NCBI GenBank assembly: GCA_028696915.1 | Contig: JAQVGB010000001.1 | Span: 1-33,362 of the forward strand | Reading direction: 5' to 3' | DNA length: 33,362 bases | Source: Candidatus Dojkabacteria bacterium | GTDB taxonomy: Bacteria > Patescibacteriota > Dojkabacteria > SC72 > JAFGCJ01 | Part shown: piece by piece, positions 11,973 through 32,783 of the stretch | How the letters are laid out: every line of letters starts with the position of its first letter | Numbering within the stretch: the stretch's first letter is position 1 | Program-made: the position numbers and the translations under genes | The notes under the pieces: model-generated | Database searches by the model: none | Told to the model about the DNA's origin: nothing | What the model saw: only the letters and a program-made list of their open reading frames with translations

Positions 11973-11985
11973 ATCCCGCCATCAC

Positions 11986-12059: not shown

Positions 12060-12072
12060 GGAGGTGGCGGGA

Positions 12073-12095: not shown

Positions 12096-12181
12096 ACACC
12101 ATGCTTGCTCAGACCATATGCGCTATAGAACGAACACCTCCTATCACTGCACTCTCTGCTCAGCAGACTGCAGATACTACA

Positions 12182-12625: not shown

Positions 12626-12647
12626 GCTATTTCGCAATTAATTCAAA

Positions 12648-12720: not shown

Positions 12721-12777
12721 ACGCCGCTCACTTATAGTACAAAAACGTTCCGATGACAAGCTTCTCGTGCTATAGGT

Positions 12778-12842
12778 TGGCGCGATCGCACCTGGCAGGA
12801 CTCGCCTGTCCGCCTCCGGCGGGAACCTGCAATCCGATTTCC
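12778..12842 (-). pseudogene. tRNA-Arg(UCU)-derived T-arm and acceptor 3' fragment with a 19-nt hairpin insertion in the T-loop (element R2)
   Basis: Minus strand: TGCAGGTT + CCCGCCGGAGGCGGACAGG + CGAGTCCTGCCAGGTGC + GATCGCGCCA. The 17-nt 3' piece is identical to the 3' end of the adjacent tRNA-Arg(UCU). The insertion is at the same T-loop position as in R1 and is near-identical to it. Confidence 0.6.
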
Positions 12843-12854
12843 ACACCACTTCTT

Positions 12855-12927
12855 CGCACCTGGCAGGACTCGAACCTGCAACCTACTGCTTAGAAGGCAG
12901 TTGCTCTATCCGTTGAGCTACAGGTGC
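12855..12927 (-). tRNA. tRNA-Arg (anticodon UCU)
   Basis: GCACCTG TA GCTC AACGGATA GAGC A ACTGC CT-TCT-AA GCAGT AGGTT GCAGG TTCGAGT CCTGC CAGGTGC, discriminator G. Confidence 0.9.
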
Positions 12928-12958
12928 ATATGATGCGATTTATTCCAACGCCACGCGA

Positions 12959-12997: not shown

Positions 12998-13858
12998 TTA
13001 GTCTTCAATCCACCATTCATTCCCGTCCGAAACGATCTCGATCGTCCCCCACTCGTCAGTTCGAAGATACTCAAGACCCAGAGCATCAAATCGTTCCAGA
13101 ATCTCCTTATGGGGATGTCCGAAAGAGTTGTCCGCCCCAACACTGCAAATCGCCAGTTCAGGAGAAGCCATCCTTAGAAAAGATTCCCCGCTTGATGTAT
13201 GGGAACAATGGTGGCCCGCCTTCAGCACATCGACAGCACGCACATTGCTCCTCCATTCACTTTTCAACAGTGACTCCTCGCCTGATTGGGTGAGATCTCC
13301 GGTCAACAGCGCGTGAAACGTCCCATATTCTACACTTACCACAAGCGAACATCCGTTCACATCCGAACGATCTCTGCTTTCACCAAAGTCACCATAGATA
13401 CTTACACTCAACACACACAAATCACCACCAGAAACCATACTTACACCAACCTCTTGGCTTACATACACCAATTTCACATTTTCGAAATTGACCTTTTCAA
13501 GTAATTCCTGAGATACGGAATCGTACTCACACACCTCCGGAACAAGAAACATCCCGACTTCATAGCGGTCCACTATTTCAAACAACCCCTCATAGTGATC
13601 AGCATGCGGATGAGTCAAAACAACAACATCTAGTTCATGAACCCACGGTGGCAGAGTCGAGCCAAGTTCAGACAGCACCGCATCTCCCGGACCGCCATCG
13701 ACAAGAATCGTCAACCCCGAAGGTGTCCTGATAAAAATTCCATCACCCTGCCCCACATCGAAAATCCATATATGTAACTGTGTATCAGCACGCCACCCAA
13801 ACCAAAGACCGGATAGACACAGGATCGTTGCAATTGTGAACATCAACACTGGCTTCAT
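12998..13858 (-). CDS. ComEC-type metallo-beta-lactamase-fold domain protein with its own N-terminal membrane anchor
   Basis: Contains HxHxDH (VVLTHPHADHYEGL) and the ComEC-MBL-like KAGHHCSHTSS motif. The N-terminus is hydrophobic (MKPVLMFTIATILCLSGLWFGW). Its start overlaps the comEC stop by 4 nt (ATGA). Confidence 0.8.
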   Translation of the reverse strand: MKPVLMFTIATILCLSGLWFGWRADTQLHIWIFDVGQGDGIFIRTPSGLTILVDGGPGDAVLSELGSTLPPWVHELDVVVLTHPHADHYEGLFEIVDRYEVGMFLVPEVCEYDSVSQELLEKVNFENVKLVYVSQEVGVSMVSGGDLCVLSVSIYGDFGESRDRSDVNGCSLVVSVEYGTFHALLTGDLTQSGEESLLKSEWRSNVRAVDVLKAGHHCSHTSSGESFLRMASPELAICSVGADNSFGHPHKEILERFDALGLEYLRTDEWGTIEIVSDGNEWWIED

Positions 13859-15399
13859 GTGCGAACTTGACCTGAAATTACCAGGCCATCCGACCGCACA
13901 TCCCTATCATTACCCGGATAAAACGCAACAATGGTCAAACCCAGCGCTACGTACAGTACCGCACATATCCAGGCCGATTCTACTGAAAATTCAACGATTG
14001 CCCACGATGGCTGGGCCAAACACTCCACAACCCAGACAAAATACCGCAGTATCACCCACGCGGGCAGAGCCACAACAATAGCAAGACTACGTGATATACA
14101 CGACACGGCGATGAGAAACACCCCCAGTCCCATAACCGGAGCAATGGTCGGAGCAACCAGTATATTCGCAATCAGCGCCACCACCGACACCGACCCAAAG
14201 TGATACGAGACGACAGGAAAAGAAGCCACTATCGCCGACAATGTCACCGACACCGATTCCGAAAAACCTTTGAGAAACCCTGCAAAGAACCGATCAATGA
14301 CCGGTGAAACATATATGAGGCCAAACGTCGACGAAAAGGAAAGCTGGAAGCTCAAATCGTAGAGGACACGAGGATCTGCCAGCACGAGCAATGCGGCGCT
14401 CAGCGGTAAAGCAACGTGCACGACAGAGGTATTACCCGAAAGCGTACCAAGCGTTGCCATCGTCACCATCAATCCTGCTCGTATAACCGGAATACTCGCG
14501 CCGGAAATCAGAACAAATGACCAGACCGCAACAAGTCCCATCAGCAAACGCTTCTTGCGCGACAGAACGGACAACATCCGATCCACCGACGTAGCAACGA
14601 TCGCCACATTGTATCCCGAAGCCGCAATAATATGTGTTGTCCCTGTTATCCGCAGGCTTTCCGAAAACCACACCGGCATGCTCCCTTCGACACCCAACAG
14701 CATACCGCCCAGAAGCGCCGCATGCGGCTCGGGAAGGTACAACTGAAGCCGCTTGAGCAAATTCCCACGAATTCGGACATGTACATTCGCCATACCTTCG
14801 GCCTTTTCAATAACGGTGAGCACCCGAGCACGGTACATAACCGAATAGATATCCTTTCTGTGCAGAAATTGCTCATATGAAAAATCAGAGTCCGGAGAAT
14901 CTCTCGGCCGCTCCAGCAGACCAGTCACGACAATTCGGTCTGCGTCTCCCACGGCAGGATACCGGGGAAGAAACACCTGCACCTTCCCGGTGACCACGTG
15001 CCACTCTTCACACTCGTCCTTCTCGATATCCGTGCACACGCGGTCGGCAGACAGAACACAGGAAATCCGGTCCGGTTTTTTCCCGCACTCTCCCGAAACA
15101 ACCCCCTCCACCATTGTAAAAGAGGTCGCATTATATGAGATATCACGATCGGGGATGGTCAGACTCACAGACCCCACCCTGATACTCACTAATGCTATCC
15201 CAAAAACAAACGGGATACATTTCACAACGCTTCTTTTTGCAATTCCCACCAAAATCACAACGATTGCACACCCCACAACTACACCAAAAGGGAAAAGGGA
15301 ACCGAAAAAGACACCAATACACCACTGCAACAATGGAACCAACACGACAAAACGACCTATAGCAACGAGTCGACAACTCAACACTTGCACTATAGGCAT
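13855..15399 (-). CDS. comEC: ComEC/Rec2 DNA-uptake channel (OB/DUF4131-like plus competence domain), lacking the MBL domain
   Basis: Polytopic membrane protein. It carries the competence-domain motif THIIAASGYNVAIV, which I recall as H-L/I-x-A-I/V-SG-x-H/N. It is preceded by comEA and followed by the MBL gene. Confidence 0.8.
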   Translation of the reverse strand: MPIVQVLSCRLVAIGRFVVLVPLLQWCIGVFFGSLFPFGVVVGCAIVVILVGIAKRSVVKCIPFVFGIALVSIRVGSVSLTIPDRDISYNATSFTMVEGVVSGECGKKPDRISCVLSADRVCTDIEKDECEEWHVVTGKVQVFLPRYPAVGDADRIVVTGLLERPRDSPDSDFSYEQFLHRKDIYSVMYRARVLTVIEKAEGMANVHVRIRGNLLKRLQLYLPEPHAALLGGMLLGVEGSMPVWFSESLRITGTTHIIAASGYNVAIVATSVDRMLSVLSRKKRLLMGLVAVWSFVLISGASIPVIRAGLMVTMATLGTLSGNTSVVHVALPLSAALLVLADPRVLYDLSFQLSFSSTFGLIYVSPVIDRFFAGFLKGFSESVSVTLSAIVASFPVVSYHFGSVSVVALIANILVAPTIAPVMGLGVFLIAVSCISRSLAIVVALPAWVILRYFVWVVECLAQPSWAIVEFSVESAWICAVLYVALGLTIVAFYPGNDRDVRSDGLVISGQVRT

Positions 15400-16627: not shown

Positions 16628-17494
16628 CTACTGCTCCTGTATTGATATGCGTTCTATAGTAACTTCATTTCTGGGCATACTGTTCTCGTCGGTCGATACC
16701 TGCGAGATCTCGTCGACCACGTTCATCCCCGAAACAACCCTTCCAAAGACTGTATGCCTCCCATTTAGCGAACTTGTGTCCGAATTGCCAACCGTTATGA
16801 AAAACTGCGACCCATTGGTATTTGGGCCGGAATTTGCCATCGCCACCACTCCTGGTCCGAACGGATAACTCTCCAGGTCATAGTTGTAGGAATACCCGAT
16901 CACATCGTCGTAGAAACTCGCAAGCGTATCGTTGGAATGCTCCTGAAGACTTCGGGGGGAATACCCGATAGTAGAGGAGTTCCACGTACTATAGAGACCT
17001 GAAAGGTATGGAGCATCTTTGACAAGGATCCGGTCAAGACCGATCGAATTCGGATTGATTTCATCAGGGAAGCTATAGCCGGGCCCTCCGGTCCCGTTCC
17101 CCGCCGGATCACCGCCCTGAATGACAAAGCCATCCACCACACGGTGAAACGTCAGATCATCATAGAAACCATCCCGGCTCAGGAAAACGAAATTGTTCAC
17201 CGTCATCGGCGCACGCTCCTCGAACAGATCGACCGTAATGTCGCCATGGTTCGTTTCAATCGTCGCCCGGTAATCCACTCCGGATCGGAGGTCCATTTCG
17301 GGTGAGGCTGAATACGTATTTCTGTTTGTTCCCATATCGGTTGATGGTCCGCTAAATTGAGCTGAATCATTAAGATAATCGCCGCCTTCGTTGAGGAAAA
17401 TACCGAGACCAACGATGATCACCGCCGCCGCAAGCAGCGGAAGAAGAACACCTTTGTGATCTTTGAATAGATCTCCGGGATTGAGAGCACCCAT
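16628..17494 (-). CDS. Membrane-anchored cyclophilin-type peptidyl-prolyl cis-trans isomerase
   Basis: Cyclophilin motifs FHRVVDGFVIQGGDP, VVAMANSGPNTNGSQFFIT and GRHTVFGRVVSGMNVVDEI. N-terminal TM segment VLLPLLAAAVIIVGLGIFL. A ~60-aa insertion lies between FPDE and the MANSGPN block. Confidence 0.85.
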   Translation of the reverse strand: MGALNPGDLFKDHKGVLLPLLAAAVIIVGLGIFLNEGGDYLNDSAQFSGPSTDMGTNRNTYSASPEMDLRSGVDYRATIETNHGDITVDLFEERAPMTVNNFVFLSRDGFYDDLTFHRVVDGFVIQGGDPAGNGTGGPGYSFPDEINPNSIGLDRILVKDAPYLSGLYSTWNSSTIGYSPRSLQEHSNDTLASFYDDVIGYSYNYDLESYPFGPGVVAMANSGPNTNGSQFFITVGNSDTSSLNGRHTVFGRVVSGMNVVDEISQVSTDENSMPRNEVTIERISIQEQ

Positions 17495-17606: not shown

Positions 17607-20045
17607 CTACACAACGAGCGTTGCGATCTTTCCCGGCACATATATGAATTTCTTGACATCCTGCCCATCCAGACACCTCTGCACGCTATCCAGGGCCATC
17701 ACAGCCGCTCTGACGGTGTCCTCCGAAGCGTCAGGCGAGATGTTGACCTTGCCCCGAACCTTGCCATTAATCTGGACCGGGATCACGACGCTCTCCTGCT
17801 GGAGAAGTTTCTCGTCAACTTCTGGCCACGGCTGAGCATGCACGCTTCCATTTCCGCCAACCGCGCTCCAGAACTCCTCTGCCACATGTGGGACCATGGG
17901 AGCTATCGCGACAGCAATTTTCTGTAAATTCTCAATCGTGACCGGCTTCTCATGTGCGTCATTGTAAAATTCCATCAGGGCGGCAACTGACGTATTGAAC
18001 TTGCGCTGGGGCAATTCATCGGTCAATTGCCGGATGAGCCTGTTAACGGCGATCTCCACCCCCAGTTCGGACACATCGTCTGTTTTCTTTTTCGCGTTGG
18101 CATTTTCCATGAAGAATTTCCAGAACTTGCGCACGAATCGGTTCACGCCTTGGATCGCCCGGTCGCTCCATTCGACCGTGCCTTCGTGAGGTCCGGTGAA
18201 TAGCAGGTACAATCTGACCACATCAGCCCCGAACTTCTCCACAAGGTCATCGGGATTTATCACATTTCCGAGCGATTTCGACATCTTTGTTCCCCCCTCG
18301 CCAAGAAGCATACCGTGATTGCGCCGTGCCCGGTACGGTTCTTTGCCCGGAACAACACCGATATCGTTGAGAAATTTGTGCCAGAACCGCGAGTACAGCA
18401 GATGAAGCGTCACGTGCTCCGCGCCGCCATCGTAAAAATCAACGGGCATCCAGTAGTTGAGCTTCTCGGGATCGGCAATCGCCGTATCGTTGTCCGGATC
18501 GCAGAATCGGTAGAAGTACCAACTCGAGCCAGCCCAGTTTGGCATAGTGTCAGTTTCACGTTTTGCAGTCCCTCCACAAGTCGGACAGGTAGTGTTCACC
18601 CATTCGTCAATCGCCGCCAGCGGCGATTCTCCCGTTTCTGTCGGTTCATATGATTCGACATCGGGAAGAACGACCGGCAAGTCCTTTTCGGGGACCGGCA
18701 CCGTCCCGCATTTCTCACAAAAAACAACCGGGATCGGCTCGCCCCAATAGTGCTGACGGGAGAAAATCCAGTCGTGAATATTGTAACGGACTTCGGCATG
18801 ACCAATACCGTTCTCAACCAAGTGGTCCATAATTTTCTCACTCGCCTCGTCCACCGATAACCCGTCCAATATATCTGAATTCACCACGGTTCCCGCGTCA
18901 TGCTGGACCTCGGAGATCTTGTTGATCTCTCCGGTCTTCCCGTCTGGACCGACAATAACTCTTGCAACCGGCAATTTATACTGTGTTGCAAACTGGAAGT
19001 CCCGCTTATCATGGCCGGGAACACCCATCACCGCCCCTGTTCCAACGGTCATGAGCACGAAATCGGTCATCCAGATCTGTACTCGCTCCCCGTTGACAGG
19101 GTTGATCGCGTACAATCCTGTAAACACTCCGGTTTTCTTCATCTTCTCGTCAGCTCGTTCCTCGGGTGTTTTTCCCTGCGCTTCTTTTTTATAAGCGAGA
19201 ACAGTGTCCCGATACTCTTCCGGCACAAACTTCTTGTCCTCGTCAAAAATCGGGTGTTCCGGCGCGACGACTATGAATGTAACCCCATAGATTGTCTCGG
19301 GCTGGGTCGTGGATACCACAAGCTTCTGCCCAGTTCCCTCCACGTCAAATGAGATATCGATCCACGTTTTCCGTCCGATCCAATTTCGCTGAGCGGCTTT
19401 GATACTCTCCGGATAATCGACTTCGTCCAGCTCATCGGCCAACCGATCCGCATACGCAGTTATTTTCAGCATCCACTGGCTCAATTCTTTCATTTCAACT
19501 TCACTACCGCACCGCTCGTGCCTCCCGTTCACCACCTCTTCGTTCGCAAGCCCTACTTTGCATTTCGGACACCAGTTGATCGGCGCTTTCTCCTTGTACG
19601 CAAGTCCATTTTCTAAAAATTTTAAAAATATCCACTGCGTCCACTTGTAGTAGGAAGGTTCCGTTGTATCGATCTCCCGACTCCAGTCAAATGAATATCC
19701 CATCATTTTCAATTGCCGGCGGAAGTTGTCGGTATTTTGCTTTGTGACAACTTTTGGATTAATTTTGTGCTTGATCGCGTAGTTTTCTGTCGGCAGGCCG
19801 AACGCATCCCACCCCATGGGGAACAGTACGTTATATCCCTGCATCCGCTCGAAACGCGCCAATACGTCAATCATCGAGTATGTGCGGCAGTGGCCGATGT
19901 GCACACCGTCTCCAGACGCATACGGAAATTCGACCAGAATGTACTTTTTAGGCTTATCCGCAAAGTCGACTGCGCGGTACAGATTCGAATGTTCCCACTC
20001 ATTCTGCCACTTAGGGTCGATTTGTTTGTGGTCGTACTCTTTCAT
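17607..20045 (-). CDS. leuS: Leucine--tRNA ligase
   Basis: 812 aa. HIGH motif (DGVHIGHCRTY), KMSKS motif (GTKMSKSLGNV), a CP1 editing region and bacterial-type organisation. Confidence 0.95.
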   Translation of the reverse strand: MKEYDHKQIDPKWQNEWEHSNLYRAVDFADKPKKYILVEFPYASGDGVHIGHCRTYSMIDVLARFERMQGYNVLFPMGWDAFGLPTENYAIKHKINPKVVTKQNTDNFRRQLKMMGYSFDWSREIDTTEPSYYKWTQWIFLKFLENGLAYKEKAPINWCPKCKVGLANEEVVNGRHERCGSEVEMKELSQWMLKITAYADRLADELDEVDYPESIKAAQRNWIGRKTWIDISFDVEGTGQKLVVSTTQPETIYGVTFIVVAPEHPIFDEDKKFVPEEYRDTVLAYKKEAQGKTPEERADEKMKKTGVFTGLYAINPVNGERVQIWMTDFVLMTVGTGAVMGVPGHDKRDFQFATQYKLPVARVIVGPDGKTGEINKISEVQHDAGTVVNSDILDGLSVDEASEKIMDHLVENGIGHAEVRYNIHDWIFSRQHYWGEPIPVVFCEKCGTVPVPEKDLPVVLPDVESYEPTETGESPLAAIDEWVNTTCPTCGGTAKRETDTMPNWAGSSWYFYRFCDPDNDTAIADPEKLNYWMPVDFYDGGAEHVTLHLLYSRFWHKFLNDIGVVPGKEPYRARRNHGMLLGEGGTKMSKSLGNVINPDDLVEKFGADVVRLYLLFTGPHEGTVEWSDRAIQGVNRFVRKFWKFFMENANAKKKTDDVSELGVEIAVNRLIRQLTDELPQRKFNTSVAALMEFYNDAHEKPVTIENLQKIAVAIAPMVPHVAEEFWSAVGGNGSVHAQPWPEVDEKLLQQESVVIPVQINGKVRGKVNISPDASEDTVRAAVMALDSVQRCLDGQDVKKFIYVPGKIATLVV

Positions 20046-20058
20046 AGAGGTGCATTCT

Positions 20059-20093
20059 AAAATAAAAACAAAAAACCTCCCTTTCGGGGAGGC
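20059..20093 (-). terminator. Intrinsic terminator of the leuS leader (attenuator segments 3:4)
   Basis: Minus strand: aaGCCTCCCcgaaaGGGAGGtTTTTTTGTTTTTATTTT. It ends 13 nt upstream of the leuS ATG (20045). Confidence 0.75.
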
Positions 20094-20128
20094 TTATCGG
20101 AACAAACCGGCGGTCAGAAGCCTCCCGC

Positions 20129-20182
20129 TTATGAGCGAAGGAGAAGGAGGCCCAGCTTTGCAATACCCGCGGTATCTATCAT
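20129..20182 (-). CDS. 17-aa leucine-rich leader peptide MIDTAGIAKLGLLLLRS
   Basis: ATG ATA GAT ACC GCG GGT ATT GCA AAG CTG GGC CTC CTT CTC CTT CGC TCA TAA. It has four consecutive Leu codons and starts 10 nt after the TATAAT box. Confidence 0.6.
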   Translation of the reverse strand: MIDTAGIAKLGLLLLRS

Positions 20183-20192
20183 ATTGAAGGAA

Positions 20193-20221
20193 ATTATATG
20201 GGGGGAATGAAGGAATGTCAA
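20193..20221 (-). promoter_or_regulatory. Consensus sigma70-type promoter TTGACA-17-TATAAT for the leuS leader
   Basis: Minus strand: TTGACA (20221..20216), 17-nt spacer ttccttcattcccccca, TATAAT (20198..20193). Confidence 0.75.
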
Positions 20222-20338
20222 AAAAAGCCGCAGGTCCGACCTGAAGTTCCCAGAAAAGTGATATACTCCAAAAGCTCATGGAAACTGTAGAAACAATCAA
20301 GAAAAGATATTCCTGCCGGGACTCTCTTTAAAAACATC

Positions 20339-21205
20339 ATGAACAATACCCTCCCGCCTATCACAAAAAATCACAAGAGTATCAAGTATCCATTTCACAC
20401 CTATACCCCCTCAGATCTACACAACAAGCACATTCTCATACTGGGACATGGATCCATAACTTCGCCGGACATTGTCGAAGAATCAGCACGTATGTTTTCA
20501 AGTTTCACCAAAGATTTTGAGAAGTACGGAATCGCCGCGCTCATGCCCGTCCTTCCAAGGAAAGTTGGTCCCAATCCCAGTCAGTATCTCGATTCCCAGA
20601 TACTGGAACGAGCCGTTATGATAGACACATGTGATCCGTACTACGCGAGACCTGACAAGGAGATCGTGAAGATGATCGTTTTGTTTCAGAGAGAACTCAG
20701 AGAGAAAGGTTATAACATCTCAGACACGGTATTTTTTTCCGGGGCGTCCGCAGGAGCATGCATGGCACAACGTATGGCTGTTCTATACCCGGATATCGTC
20801 GCCGGTACAGCAATCTTTCTATCAGGGATATTTTTGTACCCGGAAAAAGAACTGGAATCAGTTGAACTGACGTACCCGTTTGGTGTCAGCGATATCTCAG
20901 CCCTCGACGGGACACAATTCAACAAAGAATTATCTCTAAAAATACCCCAGTATATATTTGTAGGGGAGCAGGAGACTCGCGGCGGACCCTTCGATTTTGA
21001 GATTCGAAGCCAGTTAGGGCGGATTGAGGAATTTAGAAAGGTTCTCGGGGAAAATCCCTTGGAGATGACCCAAAAGTATCTGGACTATCTAAAAAAACAG
21101 AATACCCCTTTTGATGCGGTAATTAAGAAAGGCGTGGGTCACGATTGCTCCGGTTCTGATTTCAGAAAAGGATTTGAGTATATTATTGAAAACGGGTTGA
21201 AGTGA
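20339..21205 (+). CDS. Alpha/beta-fold hydrolase (esterase-like)
   Basis: Contains ILILGHG (HG oxyanion motif), the nucleophile elbow FSGASAGA (G-x-S-x-G) and a C-terminal GVGHD candidate catalytic His. An extended -10 TGaTATACT lies at 20259..20267. No closer family assignment is possible by eye. Confidence 0.6.
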   Translation: MNNTLPPITKNHKSIKYPFHTYTPSDLHNKHILILGHGSITSPDIVEESARMFSSFTKDFEKYGIAALMPVLPRKVGPNPSQYLDSQILERAVMIDTCDPYYARPDKEIVKMIVLFQRELREKGYNISDTVFFSGASAGACMAQRMAVLYPDIVAGTAIFLSGIFLYPEKELESVELTYPFGVSDISALDGTQFNKELSLKIPQYIFVGEQETRGGPFDFEIRSQLGRIEEFRKVLGENPLEMTQKYLDYLKKQNTPFDAVIKKGVGHDCSGSDFRKGFEYIIENGLK

Positions 21206-21350
21206 GGCGGGATTTGGGGGATGCAACCGCTATAGGTTGGCACAGTAGAGCTTGCAAGAGAAACTTGCAACTCCTTGAACACATTAATACACTGTATAAT
21301 ACATTCGCAGAAGTAAAGACGGCTAGGCTTAAAATACTCAACCCACAACA

Positions 21351-21794
21351 ATGGACACATCACCTGGTTTCGCACCCAATCCAGCAACCCCTACAGCTCC
21401 CCGATTAGGCGTCCCAAGATGCAGGTTGTCCGAAGCCGAATTAGCTGCACTAGAGAAAGCACATCCGGAAGAACAAGACCTACTTCACCAAATGTTCTTT
21501 GCCTATGGAAAAAGAATGAAGCCAGAAGAGGCCGTACAAGCAACAACCTCCCCTATTCCGAAAACACTGCTGTTGAGGAGAATTGAAGCGAAATCAACAG
21601 GAGCCATTCTTTATGCCATTATGAAACCAACAAGTCCACGTTCACGAGACGGAAAAACACTTGCTGAACCTCCGTTTGCCCAAACCTGTGAGTACGCGCT
21701 TATTCATACTGACGAACTGGACTCATGGGCAAAAGAGGTACTTGATCCAGAATGGAGGGCACTCCGCCAACTTGAACCGCTACATATACCATGA
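21351..21794 (+). CDS. Hypothetical protein (147 aa)
   Basis: Only an open frame with an ATG start, a CTATAGGTTGGCAC box at 21229..21242 and a TATAAT at 21295..21300 upstream. I recognise no motif. Confidence 0.35.
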   Translation: MDTSPGFAPNPATPTAPRLGVPRCRLSEAELAALEKAHPEEQDLLHQMFFAYGKRMKPEEAVQATTSPIPKTLLLRRIEAKSTGAILYAIMKPTSPRSRDGKTLAEPPFAQTCEYALIHTDELDSWAKEVLDPEWRALRQLEPLHIP

Positions 21795-21815: not shown

Positions 21816-21889
21816 TGGACCCGGCGAGATTTGAACTCGCGACCCCCTCAATGCCATTGAGGTGCTCTAGCCAACTGAGCTACGGGCCC
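21816..21889 (-). tRNA. tRNA-Ala (anticodon GGC)
   Basis: GGGCCCG TA GCTC AGTTGGCTA GAGC A CCTCA AT-GGC-AT TGAGG GGGTC GCGAG TTCAAAT CTCGC CGGGTCC A. The G3:U70 alanine identity pair is present. Confidence 0.9.
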
Positions 21890-21992: not shown

Positions 21993-24900
21993 CTACTCAG
22001 GTGTCCAAACTCCCGATCCGTTGATAACACGCACAAAGTACGCTTCAGTTCCGGAAATCGGAAAGTCAAAGCCGTACACCTCCTGTGTCCCGCCGTCGCC
22101 GGTCTCCACCTGCAAACCGCTGTACCGCGAACGAACCGCTTCCCACTCTGACAAATTATCCGCCTGTACTACTCCTGTCAGATTCACCCCATCTATCACC
22201 GATGCCGCAGTATACGACTCGCCAACGCCATGAACCGACACGAGATTCCAGCCCTCAATAAGTCCAATCGGGACTGGTTCGGCCACCCCCTTCCCTTCCA
22301 GGCGTACCAATATATCTGCACTTGAACGAATGACATACCCCTTTCCGGGTAGTATCTGAAAGTCGTTTGAACCGTAGATCGTTTCCCCCCGTTGTTCAAT
22401 CACCTGCCACTGCCCACTTTCATACGAGGCGATAGAGTAAAAGGAACCGCCGTATACTTCATTGAGATTAACCAGAACTTCAACAGCCGTAGTTCCAATA
22501 TCTTCGTTCAAAAAAGGAAACGACACAAAGTTGAAACCTTGTGATATATCATAGTAAAAGCTCAAGTTCTCTTGGGTTACCGTAATCCCCGTCGCTCTCG
22601 AGATATCAATATCTCTTTCATCGAATAATCCATTTTCGTTTACGTCCACATATATCACCGCCTGCCCCCCGGCATTGACATAGAAACATAGTGTCCCATA
22701 TCCCTCAATTCCATCGACGCAGTACTTACCCGGTTCTGGGAATAGCATTATTCCAGTTTCAGGGTCAATGATGACGTCCTGACTATCACTCTGAGCGTGC
22801 ACCCTGAAGTAATTGCTCAGAAGCGATGCTCTTTTCTCAACGCCAATCACCGCCTCCCGCAAACTTGCAATAACTCCACTCCCATCGATAACTATTTGTG
22901 AATTCTCACCTGACGGTGGATCGCACTTACAGTCACCCAGATCACTGCACTGACAGACATATCCTTTTGTATTACAAATCTGCCCGGGTTCGATACGCTG
23001 TTTTACCCAACAGCCGGGTGTAGTAATATTCGGGCACCAATCGTTTAGTTCGATACTGTAAAATGCCGCGTGTTCGCAATTACACTGTTTAGCCTTGCAC
23101 TGTTCTCCTTTTGATACATCTGCCCAAGCGGGGATCTCCGGCGGGGTACCTCCCCCACACGCTTCACCCGGAGCAATAACCGAATTTGTTTCGTCACAGT
23201 AGCAACCAACATTGGTTCCTGTCAGACTCACATCAACAGGACATGATCCCTCTGAAATTTTCTCCTGCCATACGCCTCCAGTACAGACATACTTTCTCGA
23301 TCCTGATTCGCGGACTTGTCCACTGCATTTATCGCCGCACGCCTTCCCCTCCCCACTGAAATCACATCCAGAACCGCCCCCTGAAGGAGGTGTAGCAGGA
23401 GAAGAACCACCGGTGGCGTCGGTCGAATTGCTTGTACTTGAGGAACTTCCTGATTGTTTGCATTCATAGCAAAGCTGATAGCTCACTACCACCGGCGCAC
23501 ATCGGGGACACAAAGCGCCCCCATCCGGTGTTTCCGTTCCCTCGAGCCCTCCACACGTATCATCCGGATAATACGAGCCTACACACACTTCAGACGGAGG
23601 TGGTGGAATTTGACCCGGAATATCATCCGCATCGATAAACGGACAGGTTTCCGTGCACTCTACGAAATCATATAACCGTTCATCAATATTGCAGTAACAC
23701 CCATCACCATCAAGACACTTTTGATTCCGGGATTTTGAACCCTCATTACCATCTACAGGACATTCAGAACCACCCCCGGACGGAATGGCATCACCACTCC
23801 CCGACCCATCTCCACACCCTCCACAGCAATCGCTCGATGCCTTCCACGTACCATCGGCCTGACAGGTCGCCCACGAACACTTCGGATCCCTACTACCGCC
23901 TTCGCCGCTGGTCCAACAGTCGTATTTATCTGGTCCACAGCGAACTTCTCCGCACCCACCCCCACCCGACGATGGTTCCTGTTCCTCACCTCCGGTATAA
24001 CAACAGCGGATATTCGCACTGCCCGGACATAAACCGATCTTTATCGTTCCCGCGCCATTATTACAAGAATCTCCGCTACTCTTTCCCGGAGCGGAAATAC
24101 ACTCTCCCGGAACTCCATAACAGGAACAACCGGCAAAATCGGCATCAGTGCAACCGGACTGGTTTGGATCCTCACAACAGCTCGTTGATCCCTCCGAATG
24201 GGGAGAGTCCGAGCTTGAATCTGTATCTGTCTCCGTATCGGAAGAGGACGAGTCGTCATCCGAATCATCCCCAGAAGCGTCGTTCTCGTCAATACAACAC
24301 TTAATGTTTATCGGCTGAGTGGGACACAATCCTGATCGTACCTTTCCTGAACAATCATTCTCATTCATACATTGGCCCCCCACTGCCTCACACTCCGGCT
24401 CCTGATATGCCGCTTCCACATATGACACCAGGCTCCCACCGCCCTTTGATTCCACGACGTCCTGCTCCTCCTCCATCACAATCGGATCGGCTGGGGCATC
24501 CATCGTCATAGGAATCGTCACCTCTTGTGGAACAAATCCCGGTGCTTCAACAAGAAGATATTCTTCATCTGTGTTTTCATCCACTCCCCCAAACTCGGCT
24601 CCATCAAACGCACGAAACCCTGAAATATCAATATACCAGCTTCCGTTATCCGCAAGCACTGCAGACAAGGGCTCGCTTGGCAGTTCATTAATACGCATAT
24701 AAATCACACCATCTGGAATATCACCGGCCGGTGACACAATCTTTCCATATGCGGGATTGGGAACCCGCATATCTTCGAGATCGGCAAATGTCGTGAACGA
24801 ATTTACTGATGCCGTTGGAAATCCGCCGGACGTGTCCATCTCCCATGATTTTGAGAACCTGAATCCATTCCCGACCATGAAATAGTATGTCTGCTCAGGA

Positions 24901-25442
24901 TCTAGCCCCGACACAGTCACGTGATGTGCAAAATACTCGCCGACTGTTTTCACAACCACATCCTCGGCAACCGTCAGATAATCGATCTTTGCTCCTCCAT
25001 TGCCTTCCTGTAGAGAATCCCGCATGTTTTGCGCCGCATCCAGTCGGGCGCGGATGACATCACGGTCATCCACTGCAATTTCTTTCCCAATTTTTGAGAA
25101 AAAAAGCGGGTAAAACTGGTCGGTCGTTCCATAGACCACATAGCCTTTCGTCGCCTCATCAGTCACCCAGCTAATCGTTGCGGAACGTCCGGTCACATTA
25201 GTCACACGCACCCTTTTCGGGGCAGAGAAATTCTCGGACAATCCTACATAGACAACAAATGCGATCGTGAGGACAAATACCACCAAACTCAGCCCCACAA
25301 CGAACCTGTTCGGAGAAATCTTCATCCTCAGCCGCTTCAACGCGGGCTTCTGCAACACTGTAACCGGTTCGGGAGCAGGTGGCACAGTATCGGGAGTACC
25401 GGGCACATTCGCAGCCGGAACATCAGGGACAGTCTGATCCAT
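21993..25442 (-). CDS. Membrane-anchored Fn3-headed, cysteine-rich modular surface protein, paralog 1 (1149 aa from ATG 25442)
   Basis: Pro-rich N-terminal tail, KRLRMK, then a TM segment (FVVGLSLVVFVLTIAFVVYVGL). Fn3/purple-acid-phosphatase-N-like domain (VRVTNVTGRSATISWVTDEATKGYVVYG...HHVTVSGLDPEQTYYFMVGNG). 54 Cys lie between aa 351 and 840 (counted from the track translation). The C-terminal domain is shared with paralog 2 and ends GSGVWTPE. The start is set at MDQ (25442) because a TTGACA-17-TATGCT promoter and an AGGA box lie inside the longer track ORF, whose extra 60 aa look non-protein-like. Confidence 0.8.
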   Translation of the reverse strand: MDQTVPDVPAANVPGTPDTVPPAPEPVTVLQKPALKRLRMKISPNRFVVGLSLVVFVLTIAFVVYVGLSENFSAPKRVRVTNVTGRSATISWVTDEATKGYVVYGTTDQFYPLFFSKIGKEIAVDDRDVIRARLDAAQNMRDSLQEGNGGAKIDYLTVAEDVVVKTVGEYFAHHVTVSGLDPEQTYYFMVGNGFRFSKSWEMDTSGGFPTASVNSFTTFADLEDMRVPNPAYGKIVSPAGDIPDGVIYMRINELPSEPLSAVLADNGSWYIDISGFRAFDGAEFGGVDENTDEEYLLVEAPGFVPQEVTIPMTMDAPADPIVMEEEQDVVESKGGGSLVSYVEAAYQEPECEAVGGQCMNENDCSGKVRSGLCPTQPINIKCCIDENDASGDDSDDDSSSSDTETDTDSSSDSPHSEGSTSCCEDPNQSGCTDADFAGCSCYGVPGECISAPGKSSGDSCNNGAGTIKIGLCPGSANIRCCYTGGEEQEPSSGGGGCGEVRCGPDKYDCWTSGEGGSRDPKCSWATCQADGTWKASSDCCGGCGDGSGSGDAIPSGGGSECPVDGNEGSKSRNQKCLDGDGCYCNIDERLYDFVECTETCPFIDADDIPGQIPPPPSEVCVGSYYPDDTCGGLEGTETPDGGALCPRCAPVVVSYQLCYECKQSGSSSSTSNSTDATGGSSPATPPSGGGSGCDFSGEGKACGDKCSGQVRESGSRKYVCTGGVWQEKISEGSCPVDVSLTGTNVGCYCDETNSVIAPGEACGGGTPPEIPAWADVSKGEQCKAKQCNCEHAAFYSIELNDWCPNITTPGCWVKQRIEPGQICNTKGYVCQCSDLGDCKCDPPSGENSQIVIDGSGVIASLREAVIGVEKRASLLSNYFRVHAQSDSQDVIIDPETGIMLFPEPGKYCVDGIEGYGTLCFYVNAGGQAVIYVDVNENGLFDERDIDISRATGITVTQENLSFYYDISQGFNFVSFPFLNEDIGTTAVEVLVNLNEVYGGSFYSIASYESGQWQVIEQRGETIYGSNDFQILPGKGYVIRSSADILVRLEGKGVAEPVPIGLIEGWNLVSVHGVGESYTAASVIDGVNLTGVVQADNLSEWEAVRSRYSGLQVETGDGGTQEVYGFDFPISGTEAYFVRVINGSGVWTPE

Positions 25443-25470
25443 ATGATTCCTGGAACATATAATCAATTCC

Positions 25471-25499
25471 AGCATACGCAAACACGAAATCCTTGTCAA
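25471..25499 (-). promoter_or_regulatory. Putative promoter TTGACA-17-TATGCT of paralog 1
   Basis: Minus strand: TTGACA (25499..25494), spacer aggatttcgtgtttgcg, TATGCT (25476..25471). AGGAAtcATG follows. Confidence 0.55.
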
Positions 25500-25769
25500 A
25501 CTGCTGGTGGACTGGAAATCGCACGTTTTGTTCGAAAATTCCCGATCTACACTCCTAACCTCAAAAAAACGTCCTGTCATACACCACAGAAACGGGGACA
25601 CGATGACGTCCCCTCGGCGCATCTATGTCCCCGGATTCCCCCTCGATTCCAACAATACAGAATCCGGATGAAAAGATCCTAACAAAAGTATGACAGGATA
25701 ATTACCCGAGAGAGTCGGGACAGGCCAGCACATACCGGCCAAAAACGTTTTCACCACGACACGTTTCGT

Positions 25770-28691
25770 CTACTCGGGCGTCCACACCCCGCCGCCCGCC
25801 GAAATTCTGACGAAGTACCCGCGCCCAGTTTCCAACGGAAAATCGAAACCGTACACTTGAGCGCCGGTTTTCTGCAGGCCCTCGTACCGGGACACAGGCG
25901 CATCCCACTTAGTCACGTTATCAGCGGTCGCTCCTTCAATCGCGTTGATGCTATCGATCAGGCTTTCGGCGGTGTAGATCCTTCCCGCGCCGTTAATACC
26001 CATCAGATGCCATCCGGGAACGTTGAAGTCCACGGGAGCCGGAGCCGTCAGTGAATACCCGGCAAGAAGCAATTCCATGTCAACAAACGATCTCAGCACA
26101 TATCCACGGCCGGGAACAACAGGGAAGCAGTCCCCGGAAACGGTCCCTGTATCGCGACGGTACGAAGTCGCCTGAAACTTCCCGGACTCAAATCGCCCGA
26201 CCATAGTCACCCCCAGATCCGTTGTCACAGCGTTCATATCAACAATAAGCTCACACGAATCCGTCAGGGCTGGAAGGTACTCGAACGAGACGAAATTTAA
26301 CCCTTCGGAAACGGTCAACTCAAACGTGCTTTCCGTCGTATCGACCGTTACCTCTAACAGAGTACTACAAAGATCAAGTTGTTTTTCGTCACCATCCATC
26401 ATACCATTCCCGTTATCATCAACAAAAAGCGTGTATCCCTGTCCCTCGACAAGACGGACACTCTCGACGACCCCGACACCGGGGACCGTCACACTGTATA
26501 GACCGTTTTCATCTGGCGTCATAACAAGACAGTCCGTTACGGTATACGAGGCTTCTGCGGCATGAACGGAGGGAACAAGCCGCGAGGAAGATGTTCCAAG
26601 TGCGGATTTGGAAGAAGTTCGTTGGGCGACGGCTCCGAATCGGCGGTTTTCTTCACCGGCATGCCCTCCCGGGCGAATCGGTATTGAACCTCCCCGGCTA
26701 CTACTTCCACCTGTATCACGATCCGTGCCGCCGTTCGCAGACGCCGGTTGACATGCCCCCTCACCACAGGATTCATAACCACTATTTGGGAATTCAAACG
26801 CCGCACAATCTTTGTATTCAGAAAGCGTCTCGTCGACTGATTCACCATGCTCATACCAACAACAGCATCTCTTCGTATTTCCTTGTCCTGCATTCGCAGA
26901 GTTCTCCTGAGAAGCAACCACACAACAACCAAAACCCTCCTGACATCCATGACCTTTCTTAAAGTCTCCTCCCTCACATGCCTTAGCGATATTACAAGTC
27001 CCATTTTTTCCATTGATAGCACAGCTATCACCAATATTCTTTTCAATCTTCTCGGCACAACATACAACTTCGGCGCCACCCGGACAGTGCCCCGGAACGA
27101 AGTCCTTCGGCGATTCACACGATTCTCCTGCACTTTTATCCAGACACTCTCCGGTATGATAGTTCGATGGCGTACAGTCTTCCCCTACACCTACTTTCGT
27201 GTCTTCCGTCTGGTCACTCGGCCTCCCAGATTGGTCAGAATCCTGGCCGGGACCTTCCGCATTGCTAGAAACACATTTATTCTTGTCATTGCAAATCAAC
27301 CCCTCACAACACCCACCCTCCTTATTACACGCCTCACCCACGTCACTACACAGCTCATTTCCCTCTGCACACTTACCACAGCCATGCGCCTGACAGTCGT
27401 TATATCCCTTCTTCCAATCATCCTCAGAATCACACTGACCACCACCAAGAGCCTCATTTCTCCATCCACTATCATCACAGCAGTTGTTTGCTGCCACGAC
27501 ATACGACACCAGCCCTCTCCCGCTACTTTCTTCTGTTTCTGGGCTATCGGCATCCAAGCCGTCCGCTGAGGACACCGTGATCACCCGCGCCGGAGCATTT
27601 TCATTAAGATGAATATTGACTGGAGTAGAGGCAAGATCCGATCCGGCAACGACATACACATTTTCAAGATCACTCTCCTCATCAAATGCTACCACCTCGC
27701 CGCTCACCGACCGCACATTCGCCAGATCAAGATACCACCGTCCCTCTTCGTTCAATGTCGCCGAAACCGGAGCCGACTGCGTTTCCGCACCATTGTAGTA
27801 CACAACCGCATACGAAATCCCGTCCACAGCCGCCGACCCGTCCTCTGAAACGACACTCCCGTACGATGGATCCGGAACAGCAAGGTCCTCAACCATGGCA
27901 ACTGTCACAAACACATTCTCCTGCGACACCGTGTAGCGATCATTAGCAAACGTGTCCAATTCCGCACTAAACCATAACCCCGATCCTACCGCGAAGTAGT
28001 ATTGTTGCTCTGGATCCAGCCCGGTCAGCGTCACATGATGTGTATAGTAATTATTCAAATCGGGAGCCATCGCATCATACCCGGCAGGCACCATAGAGAC
28101 ACCCTCTGTGCCACTGATATCTGCATAGTACTCAAGCTCCGCCTTGCTGACGTCCCTGTCATCATAGGCAAGTTTACTTCCAAATCTCGCAAGCACACCC
28201 GGAAGAAAACTCTGATCTTGAGAATACACGACCACACCCGGGGTCGGTTTGTCGGTCCGCCACGAAATAGTCACGGATTGATCAGTCACATTCGTTACGC
28301 GGATATCTCGAGGAGCGCTATAGGTGACTACCGTCCACACGGCAAAACCAGCAATTGATAGGAAAACGGCCCCAGCCAACAAAAGCAGGAGGGCCTTCAG
28401 AATCGAGCGGTTCCCTTTCGGTTGCTCTGATTGGGAATGCACGGATTGTGGTGGCTCAACTGGAGCGGGTTGTGTTGGTGCAAGATTAGCCTGCGGCAGT
28501 TCAACGTGCGGCACCGCAGCCTGCACACCAGCAGGTTGCGGAACATCAGGTTGACCTAACGACTGGGCCTGTTCTTCTTTTTCAGCACCCGACACCTGGT
28601 CGACTAGAGCCTTTGAATCCTGGACCGGAGGAGAACCAGGAGCATTTGACGAAGAAACCTGACCGGAAGAATTGCTCTCTTCTGGATTCAT
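25770..28691 (-). CDS. Membrane-anchored Fn3-headed, cysteine-rich modular surface protein, paralog 2 (973 aa)
   Basis: A ~95-aa Q/P/S-rich tail precedes the TM segment (ILKALLLLLAGAVFLSIAGFAVWTVV). Fn3-like domain (IRVTNVTDQSVTISWRTDKPTPGVVVYS...HHVTLTGLDPEQQYYFAVGSG). 30 Cys lie between aa 404 and 647. The C-terminal domain is colinear with paralog 1 (PGWHLMGINGAGRIYTAESLID...QVYGFDFPLETGRGYFVRISAGGGVWTPE). Confidence 0.85.
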   Translation of the reverse strand: MNPEESNSSGQVSSSNAPGSPPVQDSKALVDQVSGAEKEEQAQSLGQPDVPQPAGVQAAVPHVELPQANLAPTQPAPVEPPQSVHSQSEQPKGNRSILKALLLLLAGAVFLSIAGFAVWTVVTYSAPRDIRVTNVTDQSVTISWRTDKPTPGVVVYSQDQSFLPGVLARFGSKLAYDDRDVSKAELEYYADISGTEGVSMVPAGYDAMAPDLNNYYTHHVTLTGLDPEQQYYFAVGSGLWFSAELDTFANDRYTVSQENVFVTVAMVEDLAVPDPSYGSVVSEDGSAAVDGISYAVVYYNGAETQSAPVSATLNEEGRWYLDLANVRSVSGEVVAFDEESDLENVYVVAGSDLASTPVNIHLNENAPARVITVSSADGLDADSPETEESSGRGLVSYVVAANNCCDDSGWRNEALGGGQCDSEDDWKKGYNDCQAHGCGKCAEGNELCSDVGEACNKEGGCCEGLICNDKNKCVSSNAEGPGQDSDQSGRPSDQTEDTKVGVGEDCTPSNYHTGECLDKSAGESCESPKDFVPGHCPGGAEVVCCAEKIEKNIGDSCAINGKNGTCNIAKACEGGDFKKGHGCQEGFGCCVVASQENSANAGQGNTKRCCCWYEHGESVDETLSEYKDCAAFEFPNSGYESCGEGACQPASANGGTDRDTGGSSSRGGSIPIRPGGHAGEENRRFGAVAQRTSSKSALGTSSSRLVPSVHAAEASYTVTDCLVMTPDENGLYSVTVPGVGVVESVRLVEGQGYTLFVDDNGNGMMDGDEKQLDLCSTLLEVTVDTTESTFELTVSEGLNFVSFEYLPALTDSCELIVDMNAVTTDLGVTMVGRFESGKFQATSYRRDTGTVSGDCFPVVPGRGYVLRSFVDMELLLAGYSLTAPAPVDFNVPGWHLMGINGAGRIYTAESLIDSINAIEGATADNVTKWDAPVSRYEGLQKTGAQVYGFDFPLETGRGYFVRISAGGGVWTPE

Positions 28692-28862: not shown

Positions 28863-28935
28863 TGGACCCGGGCGGAATCGAACCGCCAACCTCTACAATG
28901 CGAATGTAGCGCTCTGCCAGTTGAGCTACGGGCCC
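28863..28935 (-). tRNA. tRNA-Ala (anticodon CGC)
   Basis: GGGCCCG TA GCTC AACTGGCA GAGC G CTACA TT-CGC-AT TGTAG AGGTT GGCGG TTCGATT CCGCC CGGGTCC A. G3:U70 is present. Confidence 0.9.
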
Positions 28936-29020: not shown

Positions 29021-29464
29021 CTATAACCATAAAGGTCGCGCATGCACCCGTAACCATCGGTAATCGTAATACTTTGTGACCAGTTTGAGTTTGACTGGAT
29101 TATTCTGCAAATATGCCCTTAGTCTCTTCCAATCTGTGTGGGCCGGAACATGCTTTGCCTGGTATCTCCCTTGAAAAACATGCCCCACCAGCCTATTCCG
29201 ACGATTAATATAGATGGTATACGAAATCCCCATACCCTGCATGAATTTGGGAATAGACCCGTCCATCAGCGGTTTCAACGCAAAGTGAAAATGATTAGGA
29301 AGTAGGCAATAGGCAATCACCTTAACCTTGAATCTATGAGAATATTTCCGTACTAGGCCAAGAAAAACTTCGTAGTCCCGCTCACGATAAAAGATGCTCT
29401 TCTTTCTGTTTCCCCTATTATAAATATGGTATATCTGGCCCTGAAAGAATTCGATGCGTCGCAT
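29021..29464 (-). CDS. IS200/IS605-family Y1 (HUH) transposase-like protein, REP-associated-tyrosine-transposase-like
   Basis: IYHIYNRGN, the HUH motif LLPNHFHFAL, GHVFQGRY, and a catalytic Tyr context RAYLQNNP. ATG 29464 is preferred over the track's GTG 29470. TATACT at 29476..29471 lies 6 nt upstream. Confidence 0.7.
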   Translation of the reverse strand: MRRIEFFQGQIYHIYNRGNRKKSIFYRERDYEVFLGLVRKYSHRFKVKVIAYCLLPNHFHFALKPLMDGSIPKFMQGMGISYTIYINRRNRLVGHVFQGRYQAKHVPAHTDWKRLRAYLQNNPVKLKLVTKYYDYRWLRVHARPLWL

Positions 29465-29602
29465 TCCCACAGTATATAGCCCACTTGTTACGGAACCATT
29501 ACGTACCGGTGTTAAGATCCAACCCGCACTCCTATCGGCCTACATCCCGGATCACATATCCCACGGAAAACCCACAACAAGAAGAAAACACGAAGATCCG
29601 AT

Positions 29603-32550: not shown

Positions 32551-32628
32551 ACCACTAAATCCTCTATGGACCTACCGGTCGAGGTATAACACAACAGTTA
32601 TTTCCCGAAAAGAAGAGCGATGCGCGAA

Positions 32629-32746
32629 CTTTTCCGAGGGACCAGTCGCAGGTATTCCCTACGCCAGACCCTGGGAAAAATCCGCGCGGGTAGACTTTTC
32701 CGAGGGACCAGTCATAGCTGTTCACTATACCAGACCCTGGGAAAAA
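32629..32746 (-). repeat. Two direct repeats (period 66 nt) with conserved arms and a variable 16-nt centre
   Basis: Plus-strand units 32629..32680 and 32695..32746 share cttttccgagggaccagtc and ccagaccctgggaaaaa exactly. The centres are gcaggtattccctacg and atagctgttcactata. Confidence 0.95.
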
Positions 32747-32783
32747 CCTGCCCGCCGACACTTAGTTATTGAAGAACATGTAC

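Follow-up and report, generated by a model that had tools for sequence, protein, structure and literature searches.

A family of cysteine-rich, predicted membrane-anchored surface proteins with a conserved C-terminal domain in Candidatus Dojkabacteria

Two adjacent genes of Candidatus (Ca.) Dojkabacteria encode proteins p1 and p2, which we identify as members of different subfamilies within one large and widespread protein family. The family is uncharacterised, its proteins are predicted to be type II membrane-anchored and exposed at the cell surface, and, judging by the names of homolog records, it occurs in the ultra-small Patescibacteria, mainly in Ca. Dojkabacteria. The genes are located in a 33,362-nucleotide stretch of DNA (contig JAQVGB010000001.1 of assembly GCA_028696915.1, positions 1–33,362 of the forward strand), which was analysed as a whole and is called the window here. 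Each protein can be divided into an N-terminal tail, one transmembrane helix, a fibronectin type III (Fn3) domain, a beta-rich spacer domain, a cysteine-rich core, and a C-terminal domain. A first-pass annotation of the DNA had proposed this common architecture, as well as a topology in which the proteins are membrane-anchored and extracytoplasmic, and our analysis of the sequences upholds both. We suggest, with about even confidence, that the core forms a disulfide-stiffened stalk that presents the conserved, non-enzymatic C-terminal domain for binding in adhesion or recognition. To our knowledge, little has been learned about how members of the Candidate Phyla Radiation (CPR) recognise partner cells and attach to them, except in a few Saccharibacteria and Absconditabacteria that have been cultivated.

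An exhaustive search with a profile of the C-terminal domain (alignment A1) identified 1629 cluster representatives at E ≤ 1e-3, including 315 at E ≤ 1e-30, and in the best 150 of the 1629 the domain is positioned at the C-terminal end of 850–1450-residue proteins. The domain of p1 scores 383.2 bits against the family profile, and that of p2 is 53–57% identical to its nearest relatives. A word-indexed search with p2 provided about 20 relatives with lengths of 860–1500 residues, the named ones of which are assigned to ‘Candidatus Dojkabacteria’ or ‘Patescibacteria group’. Scanning species-representative genomes revealed eight clear loci, located in metagenome-assembled genomes (MAGs) of Dojkabacteria, ‘uncultured Saccharibacteria’, or unclassified bacteria. 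The C-terminal domain is present in 166 of the 167 family proteins that we collected, and mostly ends 0–6 residues from the C-terminus; 11 members extend approximately 18–27 residues past it and one approximately 150, and in a subgroup the tail is short and contains cysteine. Full-length members (112 proteins) contain a median of 39 cysteines, with a range from 5 to 80, and 103 of them have a hydrophobic segment close to the N-terminus. In a Pfam census, 43 of 44 members contained PF16656 and no other real domain. Many genes of locus L001 (a contig of GCA_040771765.1), including MutL, LexA, NrdD, and the family gene, are split into short open reading frames (ORFs), which suggests a frameshift-rich assembly, and the 238-residue protein P0003 is therefore probably a fragment rather than a short family member.

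The first-pass annotation could not place the core or the C-terminal domain in a characterised family, and our searches of Pfam, NCBIfam, PHROGs, PADLOC, and the PDB, together with Foldseek comparisons, agree with it. The only Pfam matches of p1 and p2 were PF16656/fn3, and NCBIfam, PHROGs, and PADLOC contained nothing similar to either protein. Sequence and profile searches of the PDB with alignments A1–A4 and with p1 matched only the Fn3 domain. When isolated C-terminal domains were compared to Pfam at E ≤ 10, the only match was to SdrD_B in the homolog P0032 (E 4.7e-4, 20.8 bits, below the cut-off of 29.7), and p1 and p2 gave none. A phage origin of the family was considered and rejected, as the viral contig collection contained no relative. 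We found no description of the family, its C-terminal domain, or the eight-cysteine module of its core in the literature, the coverage of which was incomplete, so that an earlier description is possible.

The structure of the C-terminal domain of p1, predicted by AlphaFold2 from a 60-sequence alignment, has a mean predicted local distance difference test score (pLDDT) of 94.9 and a predicted template modelling score (pTM) of 0.87. The model can be divided into a small beta subdomain with a Ca-binding-type DxNxNGxxD loop, which is the region of the SdrD_B match in P0032, followed by two alpha/beta units of approximately 95 residues. The two units are an internal duplication (hhalign of unit against unit: 97.2% probability, E 3e-11). 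Foldseek identified no match to the model at E ≤ 0.001 in the PDB or BFVD, with TM-scores below 0.2; over all the Foldseek comparisons, which included the eight-cysteine module, TM-scores did not exceed 0.26. Sequence conservation climbs towards the C-terminus, and in the last unit 29 of 93 positions are at least 80% conserved. The positions conserved to this degree are occupied by Gly, Pro, aromatic residues (14 Tyr/Phe/Trp), and Asn/Asp, and include no His, Cys, Glu, or Lys. There is thus no evident catalytic set, and the C-terminal domain is likely to have a binding or structural role rather than a catalytic one.

A single unit of approximately 100 residues, with the hallmark motifs L.L..GFNF[VI]SLP ... 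G.GY.I ... L.G ... GWN, was also found outside the family. It is present in an RHS/TcdB-mid/FG-GAP ORF of a Planctomycetia MAG (L010, approximately residues 1277–1451) and at the N-terminus (residues 31–133) of a SpvB/ZU5/Glucodextran_B protein of an Omnitrophota MAG (L011, ORF 7905–9959). These occurrences indicate that the 95–100-residue unit is a rare mobile extracellular module. A word-indexed search with the single-unit alignment A3 returned two proteins only and added nothing.

Each protein has one hydrophobic segment with Lys or Arg on its N-terminal side, and the Fn3 domain and all the core cysteines are located C-terminal to it. This arrangement points to an N-in signal anchor, in which the Fn3 domain would form the membrane-proximal base and the C-terminal domain the distal end. 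The Fn3 domain, which the first-pass annotation called a head, begins approximately six residues past the transmembrane helix (FSAP in p1 or YSAP in p2, then R.TNVT) and is better described as a base. The N-terminal tail of p2 is not conserved, with 4–29% identity to homologs. PF16656 (Pur_ac_phosph_N, an Fn3-like family) scores above its Pfam gathering threshold of 30 bits in both p1 and p2, and spans only approximately 10% of each protein. The spacer domain of p2 is 35–41% identical to those of its nearest relatives. It had been guessed to be a CarboxypepD_reg or transthyretin-like sandwich, which was dropped since the spacer has no Pfam match even at E ≤ 10. The same Fn3 subtype is used by a second, different large surface protein encoded in the window (609–9287, forward strand), which has 2892 residues, an N-terminal hydrophobic anchor, Laminin_G_3 domains, and several PAP-N/Fn3 domains near its C-terminus.

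Cysteine makes up 4.9% of the residues of p1, 3.5% of those of p2, and 11–12% of the two cores, compared to 0.92% across 13 other genes of the window. Recounting confirmed 54 cysteines in residues 351–840 of p1 and 30 in residues 404–647 of p2, as annotated in the first pass; the whole proteins contain 56 and 34, respectively. The sequence motifs quoted in that annotation, including the acidic Ser/Asp linker and the GVWTPE ends, were all found, and the nucleotide end of the p1 core was corrected from 22926 to 22923. The core of p1 contains two six-cysteine modules ending with CC (residues 351–383 and 441–481) and the acidic Ser/Asp linker (residues 392–413). The core of p2 is formed by a 12-cysteine module with knottin-like spacing, two six-cysteine modules ending with CC (residues 506–545 and 557–590), and one CCC module. 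The modules within the cores are separated by acidic, Gly/Ser-rich, or low-complexity linkers.

The cysteine framework is conserved in homologs. The spacing in p2 (0-14-12-4-2-6-6-5-0-4-5, 9-8-10-7-0, 8-5-10-5-0, and 18-0-0-17-12-4 for the successive modules) agrees almost module for module with that in P0006 (0-9-11-4-2-6-6-5-0-4-5, 8-8-8-5-0, 12-8-8-5-0, and 38-0-0-12-3-4), even though the overall identity of the two proteins is 38%. Furthermore, a family-wide eight-cysteine module of approximately 65 residues, with the pattern I..GE.C..C.C...I..G.WC.EV..C...GK.C...G.TC...C, occurs in one to four copies each in 66–67 of the 167 proteins (approximately 40%), typically about 40 residues before the C-terminal domain. 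Seven of its cysteines are invariant in an alignment of 45 copies, and the eighth is present in at least 70%. One copy is present in p1 and none in p2, and the module is therefore not obligatory in the family. The module was predicted by AlphaFold with a pLDDT of 82.3, and neither Foldseek (E ≤ 0.001) nor a sequence search identified a match to it in the PDB. The number of cysteines is even in 77 of the 112 full-length members (binomial p = 4.5e-5). The conserved framework shows that the cysteine content is not compositional noise, an explanation that the first-pass annotation had named as fatal to its proposal. The strict conservation of the cysteines implies that the cores probably undergo extracellular disulfide chemistry.

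The composition of the core is variable among the family members. Its length ranges from approximately 170 to approximately 680 residues, and in some members an SH3_3, beta-helix, or Ig-like domain replaces or supplements it. One member has only two cysteines, and some are almost cysteine-free yet retain both conserved ends. The middle of the protein thus acts like an interchangeable cassette, flanked on either side by a conserved end. The cores are so divergent that phmmer searches with them in isolation returned hardly any relatives. The identities of p1 and p2 to their nearest relatives are 47–57% in the Fn3 domain, 33–41% in the spacer, 21–32% in the core, and 43–57% in the C-terminal domain, which, together with the variation in core length and modules, bears out the earlier statement that the core diverges while the ends are conserved. 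The positional ortholog of p1 in a related genome, P0087, is 33–39% identical to it, whereas Rho, M23, RadA, and Y1_Tnp of the same relative are 80, 64, 57, and 49% identical to their counterparts in the window. The whole gene appears to evolve fast, with the core evolving fastest; fast evolution is typical of surface proteins.

The alignment of p1 with p2 by BLASTP consists of two colinear blocks. The N-terminal block (residues 72–481 of p1, from the Fn3 domain into the start of the core) has 32% identity (E 5e-50), and the C-terminal domains are 38% identical (E 1e-41), less than the roughly one half estimated by eye in the first pass. The two proteins score only 294 bits against each other. 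The best relatives of p1 (P0087, P0098, and P0114) score 499–425 bits, those of p2 (P0006, P0055, P0042, and P0007) score 596–484 bits, and all of them are from other genomes. In addition, the positions of the cysteines within the C-terminal domains differ between p1 and p2. The higher scores to proteins from other genomes and the differing cysteines indicate that p1 and p2 diverged long ago as paralogs and belong to two subfamilies. A recent tandem duplication was rejected on the basis of the bit scores (294 versus 499 and 596). A target of a diversity-generating retroelement was also considered and rejected: no repeats resembling a template and variable repeat pair were found, and there is no reverse transcriptase among the neighbouring genes. 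The only direct repeat of at least 30 nucleotides that touches p1 or p2 is a chance-level 31-nucleotide pair with 71% identity.

The function that we favour combines these features as follows. The N-in signal anchor would hold the protein in the membrane, with the PAP-N-type Fn3 domain and the cysteine-free spacer domain placed immediately outside, on its outer face. Next in the sequence are small modules, which vary from member to member, have conserved cysteine frameworks, and are interspersed with acidic or Gly/Ser-rich linkers. Disulfide bonds within the modules may produce a stiff, protease-resistant stalk, which would carry the C-terminal domain through the cell wall. There, the domain could act as a non-enzymatic binding head for a conserved ligand, most plausibly a glycan or an envelope component belonging to another cell or to a surface. 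In this view, p1 and p2 would function as fibrils for adhesion or recognition; the two genes are presumably transcribed separately and are not recent duplicates.

Several points weigh against this function. Many adhesins combine a variable tip with a conserved stalk, and the reverse is seen here. A conserved tip would suit a ligand on a host, but equally one that is invariant or belongs to the cell itself. No ligand-binding family was matched by sequence or fold in the Pfam, PDB, and Foldseek searches, and the window contains no ORF for a thiol-oxidoreductase, so that the formation of disulfides is an assumption. Elsewhere in the family the neighbouring genes are unrelated housekeeping genes, and this unconserved neighbourhood provides no functional clue. 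The first-pass annotation had suggested adhesin-, toxin-, or receptor-binding-type effectors of an episymbiotic cell; these roles and the episymbiotic lifestyle are hypothetical for this lineage.

The main rival explanation, which we consider rather unlikely, is that the proteins are envelope tethers or struts, with the N-terminus in the membrane and the C-terminal domain bound to the cell’s own peptidoglycan or outer layer; their role would be architectural, and they would not be adhesins for other cells. Conserved ends flanking a variable middle fit the adhesin and the tether alike, and two fixed contact points with a middle free to vary are what a tether would be expected to have. The family is multi-copy in genomes, with a second gene within 8 kb at four of the eight loci (L002, L005, L008, and L009), one member contains SH3_3 domains, which typically bind the cell wall, and the conserved aromatic residues and Asn/Asp of the C-terminal domain would suit the binding of a glycan. 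However, a fourfold range of core lengths is odd for a fixed-distance spacer, and genes that evolve much faster than their neighbours are unusual for a core structural element. Furthermore, Pfam identified no SLH, LysM, CWB, GW, or other known wall-binding domain in p1, p2, and 44 relatives, and the high cysteine content argues, from general knowledge, against a role in an S-layer lattice.

The core modules could alternatively be active peptides of the defensin or knottin type with antimicrobial, toxin, or inhibitor activity, arranged in a precursor or a display array; they would be released by proteolysis at the linkers or act on the tether. The four six-cysteine modules ending with CC were identified by a regular expression, C-x(4-12)-C-x(3-12)-C-x(6-13)-C-x(4-9)-CC, which has beta-defensin-like spacing and occurs approximately 0.03 times per protein in shuffled sequences. 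Residues 448–473 of p2, C-x6-C-x5-CC-x4-C-x5-C, have knottin-like spacing, and the low-complexity linkers set the modules apart. Nevertheless, we regard a peptide array as improbable. Only the spacing is alike, Pfam searches at E ≤ 1 gave no match to a defensin, knottin, or toxin family, and members that are nearly cysteine-free keep both conserved ends. The six-cysteine module occurs in just 4 of the 167 family proteins and is thus not family-defining; a hidden Markov model of it identified no copies beyond its training set. The presence of PF16656 above the cut-off in p1, p2, and 43 of 44 relatives could also point to an enzyme of the phosphatase type, either secreted or bound to the membrane. 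This is highly improbable, since PF16656 is an Fn3-like accessory domain, no metallophosphoesterase or other enzyme family was matched in Pfam or NCBIfam at E ≤ 1, and there is no His, Cys, Glu, or Lys among the conserved residues of the C-terminal domain.

The positions of the genes, the domains, and the flanking genes are listed in Table 1. Both genes are uninterrupted ORFs, which speaks against the pseudogenisation that the first-pass annotation had allowed for. The gene of p2, identical in protein and DNA, followed by the start of p1, is also present in an independent Logan assembly seen in four samples; SRR10812145 is among the four runs with this contig. The start of p1 was taken at MDQTVPD; an in-frame ATG upstream at 25622 would add 60 residues (1209 in total). 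The region between the stop codon of p2 and the p1 start at 25442 contains a hairpin with a T-rich tail (25613–25594) and a promoter-like sequence, TTGACA-17-TATGCT (25499–25471). These two sites favour the shorter p1 and separate transcription of the two genes, but sites of this type are no commoner here than in shuffled sequences, and the assignment is only suggestive.

Table 1. Positions of the p1 and p2 genes, their predicted domains, and flanking genes in the window
Feature	Residues	Nucleotides	Strand	Basis or remark
p1 gene	1–1149	21993..25442	(-)	1149 aa; complete ORF including stop
p1 transmembrane helix (signal anchor), then FSAP	44–68	25239..25313	(-)	Hydropathy
p1 PAP-N-type Fn3 domain with inserted segment (..DDRDV..)	69–195	24858..25238	(-)	PF16656, E 3.5e-9, 37.5 bits
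p1 cysteine-free beta-rich domain (spacer), conserved	196–345	24408..24857	(-)	BLASTP block, conservation
p1 cysteine-rich core, 54 Cys	346–845	22908..24407	(-)	Sequence, module patterns
p1 family-wide eight-cysteine module	776–850	22893..23117	(-)	Match E 3e-11; one copy
p1 conserved C-terminal domain	885–1149	21996..22790	(-)	AlphaFold; hhalign
p2 gene	1–973	25770..28691	(-)	973 aa; complete ORF including stop
p2 Pro/Gln-rich N-terminal tail, predicted cytoplasmic	1–95	28407..28691	(-)	Sequence
p2 single transmembrane helix (signal anchor), then YSAP	96–122	28326..28406	(-)	Hydropathy >1.8; Lys/Arg before helix
p2 PAP-N-type Fn3 domain	123–240	27972..28325	(-)	PF16656, E 5e-11, 43.5 bits
p2 cysteine-free beta-rich domain (spacer), conserved	241–395	27507..27971	(-)	35% identity to p1
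p2 cysteine-rich core, 30 Cys	396–660	26712..27506	(-)	Cys spacing kept in P0006
p2 conserved C-terminal domain ending GVWTPE	713–973	25773..26555	(-)	368.6 bits to family profile
tRNA-Ala(GGC), downstream flank		21816..21889	(-)	Same position in L015, L016, L003
tRNA-Ala(CGC), upstream flank		28863..28935	(-)	Same position in L015, L016
IS200-like Y1_Tnp gene, syntenic neighbour outside the protein pair		29021..29470	(-)	PF01797, E 6.5e-12

The order of genes in the contigs that encode P0087 is ClpB, RadA, Rho, LysM-M23, Y1_Tnp, tRNA-Ala(CGC), P0087, and tRNA-Ala(GGC). The order in the window is the same, with p2 and p1 between the tRNA-Ala genes. On the other side, locus L003 contains a p1-like gene, tRNA-Ala(GGC), a cyclophilin-type peptidyl-prolyl isomerase (PPIase), ComEA, ComEC, a metallo-beta-lactamase gene, and three tRNA-Arg genes. 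The same flanks around a single p1-like gene in a relative indicate that the neighbourhood with the tRNA-Ala genes and the IS200-like gene is ancestral. Either a p2-type gene was added in the lineage of the window, or it was lost in the relative. The first-pass annotation had noted that the pair is bounded by two tRNA-Ala genes and an IS200-like gene; this was confirmed, but the arrangement is conserved synteny and does not mark a mobile island. A genomic island between the tRNA genes and the insertion sequence was rejected on account of the uniform GC content and the conserved flanks. Y1_Tnp genes occupy the same syntenic position in L015 (6792–7307, 49% identity) and, as a shorter copy, in L003 (2149–2481), and the gene looks like a resident that was inherited vertically rather than a recent insertion.

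The remaining genes of the neighbourhood provide additional observations. The PPIase gene, which in L003 is the family gene’s syntenic neighbour, is located at 16628–17494 of the window (reverse strand) and encodes 288 residues without cysteine, of which a segment of approximately 60 residues (about 148–209) is absent from the L003 ortholog. In L003 it directly follows tRNA-Ala(GGC), unlike in the window, where a leucyl-tRNA synthetase gene and two ORFs of 288 and 147 residues are located between them (17607–21794). The 288-residue ORF (20339–21205) contains a G-x-S-x-G hydrolase-like motif and has no Pfam match, and the 147-residue ORF is at 21351–21794. ComEC (12998–15399, reverse strand) is encoded by two ORFs that overlap by four nucleotides and contain the Competence/DUF4131 and metallo-beta-lactamase parts, respectively; the same split is present in L003. 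Three tRNA-Arg genes (tcg, gcg, and tct) are positioned next to ComEC at 11985–12928 (reverse strand), and their order is kept in L003 (6977–7613). The intergenic region between RadA and Rho contains two tandem copies of a 66-nucleotide direct repeat (32628–32759) that are 79% identical and have no match in Rfam.

The family is real and large and has no structural assignment, and there is nothing conceptually surprising about it for this lineage. Current domain libraries recognise nothing in approximately 85–90% of each protein, and two domains that were modelled with confidence are without a match in the PDB or BFVD (the PDB in the case of the eight-cysteine module). The domain boundaries and profiles determined here could become new family models. 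The family could help to find the hosts or ligands of an uncultivated lineage, provided that its C-terminal domain is indeed a binding head. It is conceivable, although we consider it doubtful, that the C-terminal domain and the eight-cysteine module are new folds that form a lineage-specific apparatus of Dojkabacteria-type Patescibacteria for the recognition of hosts or partners, in which the p1- and p2-types would be distinct determinants of specificity; such an apparatus would require extracytoplasmic oxidative folding in bacteria with reduced genomes, the sources of which, according to a few records, are bioreactors and the environment.

Individual parts of p1 and p2 resemble known systems. 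The Fn3 domain shares the ISW.T and HHVT..GL.P...Y.F.VG motifs with the N-terminal domain of purple acid phosphatases (PAP), but it carries an insert of approximately 50 residues (..YDDRDV..) and is not followed by a phosphatase catalytic domain. The six-cysteine spacing fits that of beta-defensins and, for the C-C-CC-C-C type, of knottins, as identified by regular expressions; however, the modules of p1 and p2 are embedded in proteins of approximately 1000 residues instead of standing alone, and have no profile match. The alpha/beta unit of approximately 100 residues is common to the family and to RHS/Tc-toxin-type proteins (L010 and L011), but at 47 and 32 bits the matches are weak and extend over a single unit, and Pfam identified no RHS, SpvB, or TcdB domains in p1 and p2. 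The proposed arrangement of anchor, stalk, and distal binding region follows the same logic as in the Gram-positive, sortase-anchored MSCRAMM/Sdr adhesins, and the acidic Ser/Asp linker of p1 and the DxNxNGxxD loop recall the Ser-Asp stalk and the Ca-binding SdrD B repeats. The polarity is reversed, with the membrane anchor at the N-terminus and the head at the C-terminus; p1 and p2 have no LPXTG motif or C-terminal hydrophobic segment, both ending with G.GVWTPE, and their stalk would be formed by cysteine modules instead of SD repeats.

The kind of protein represented by p1 and p2 is already known in CPR bacteria; within our searches, no description of the specific family, its C-terminal domain, or the eight-cysteine module was found. 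Another patescibacterial epibiont has been noted to have large surface proteins that contain adhesion domains (PMC13059738), and large cysteine-rich extracellular proteins with a proposed role in attachment were reported from the CPR bacterium Ca. Peribacter riflensis (Anantharaman et al. 2016, PMC4736985). The first-pass annotation called the cysteine density of p1 and p2 rare in bacterial extracellular proteins; the P. riflensis report makes it less exceptional in this lineage. Both proteins have the features of the descriptive class of CPR cysteine-rich extracellular proteins: size, a signal anchor, a predicted extracellular location, and several percent cysteine. The P. riflensis proteins belong to another CPR lineage and can be compared with p1 and p2 by description only. 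They are reported to have a weak likeness to Myxococcus cysteine-rich repeats and FG-GAP, for which there is no Pfam match in the p1/p2 family, and the parts of the report at hand mention neither a PAP-N base nor a duplicated C-terminal domain. According to the same parts, the P. riflensis proteins, like p1 and p2, are large, very cysteine-rich, and multi-copy or clustered, have a signal peptide or transmembrane segment and a predicted extracellular location, and are likewise without functional annotation, and attachment has been proposed as the role of both.

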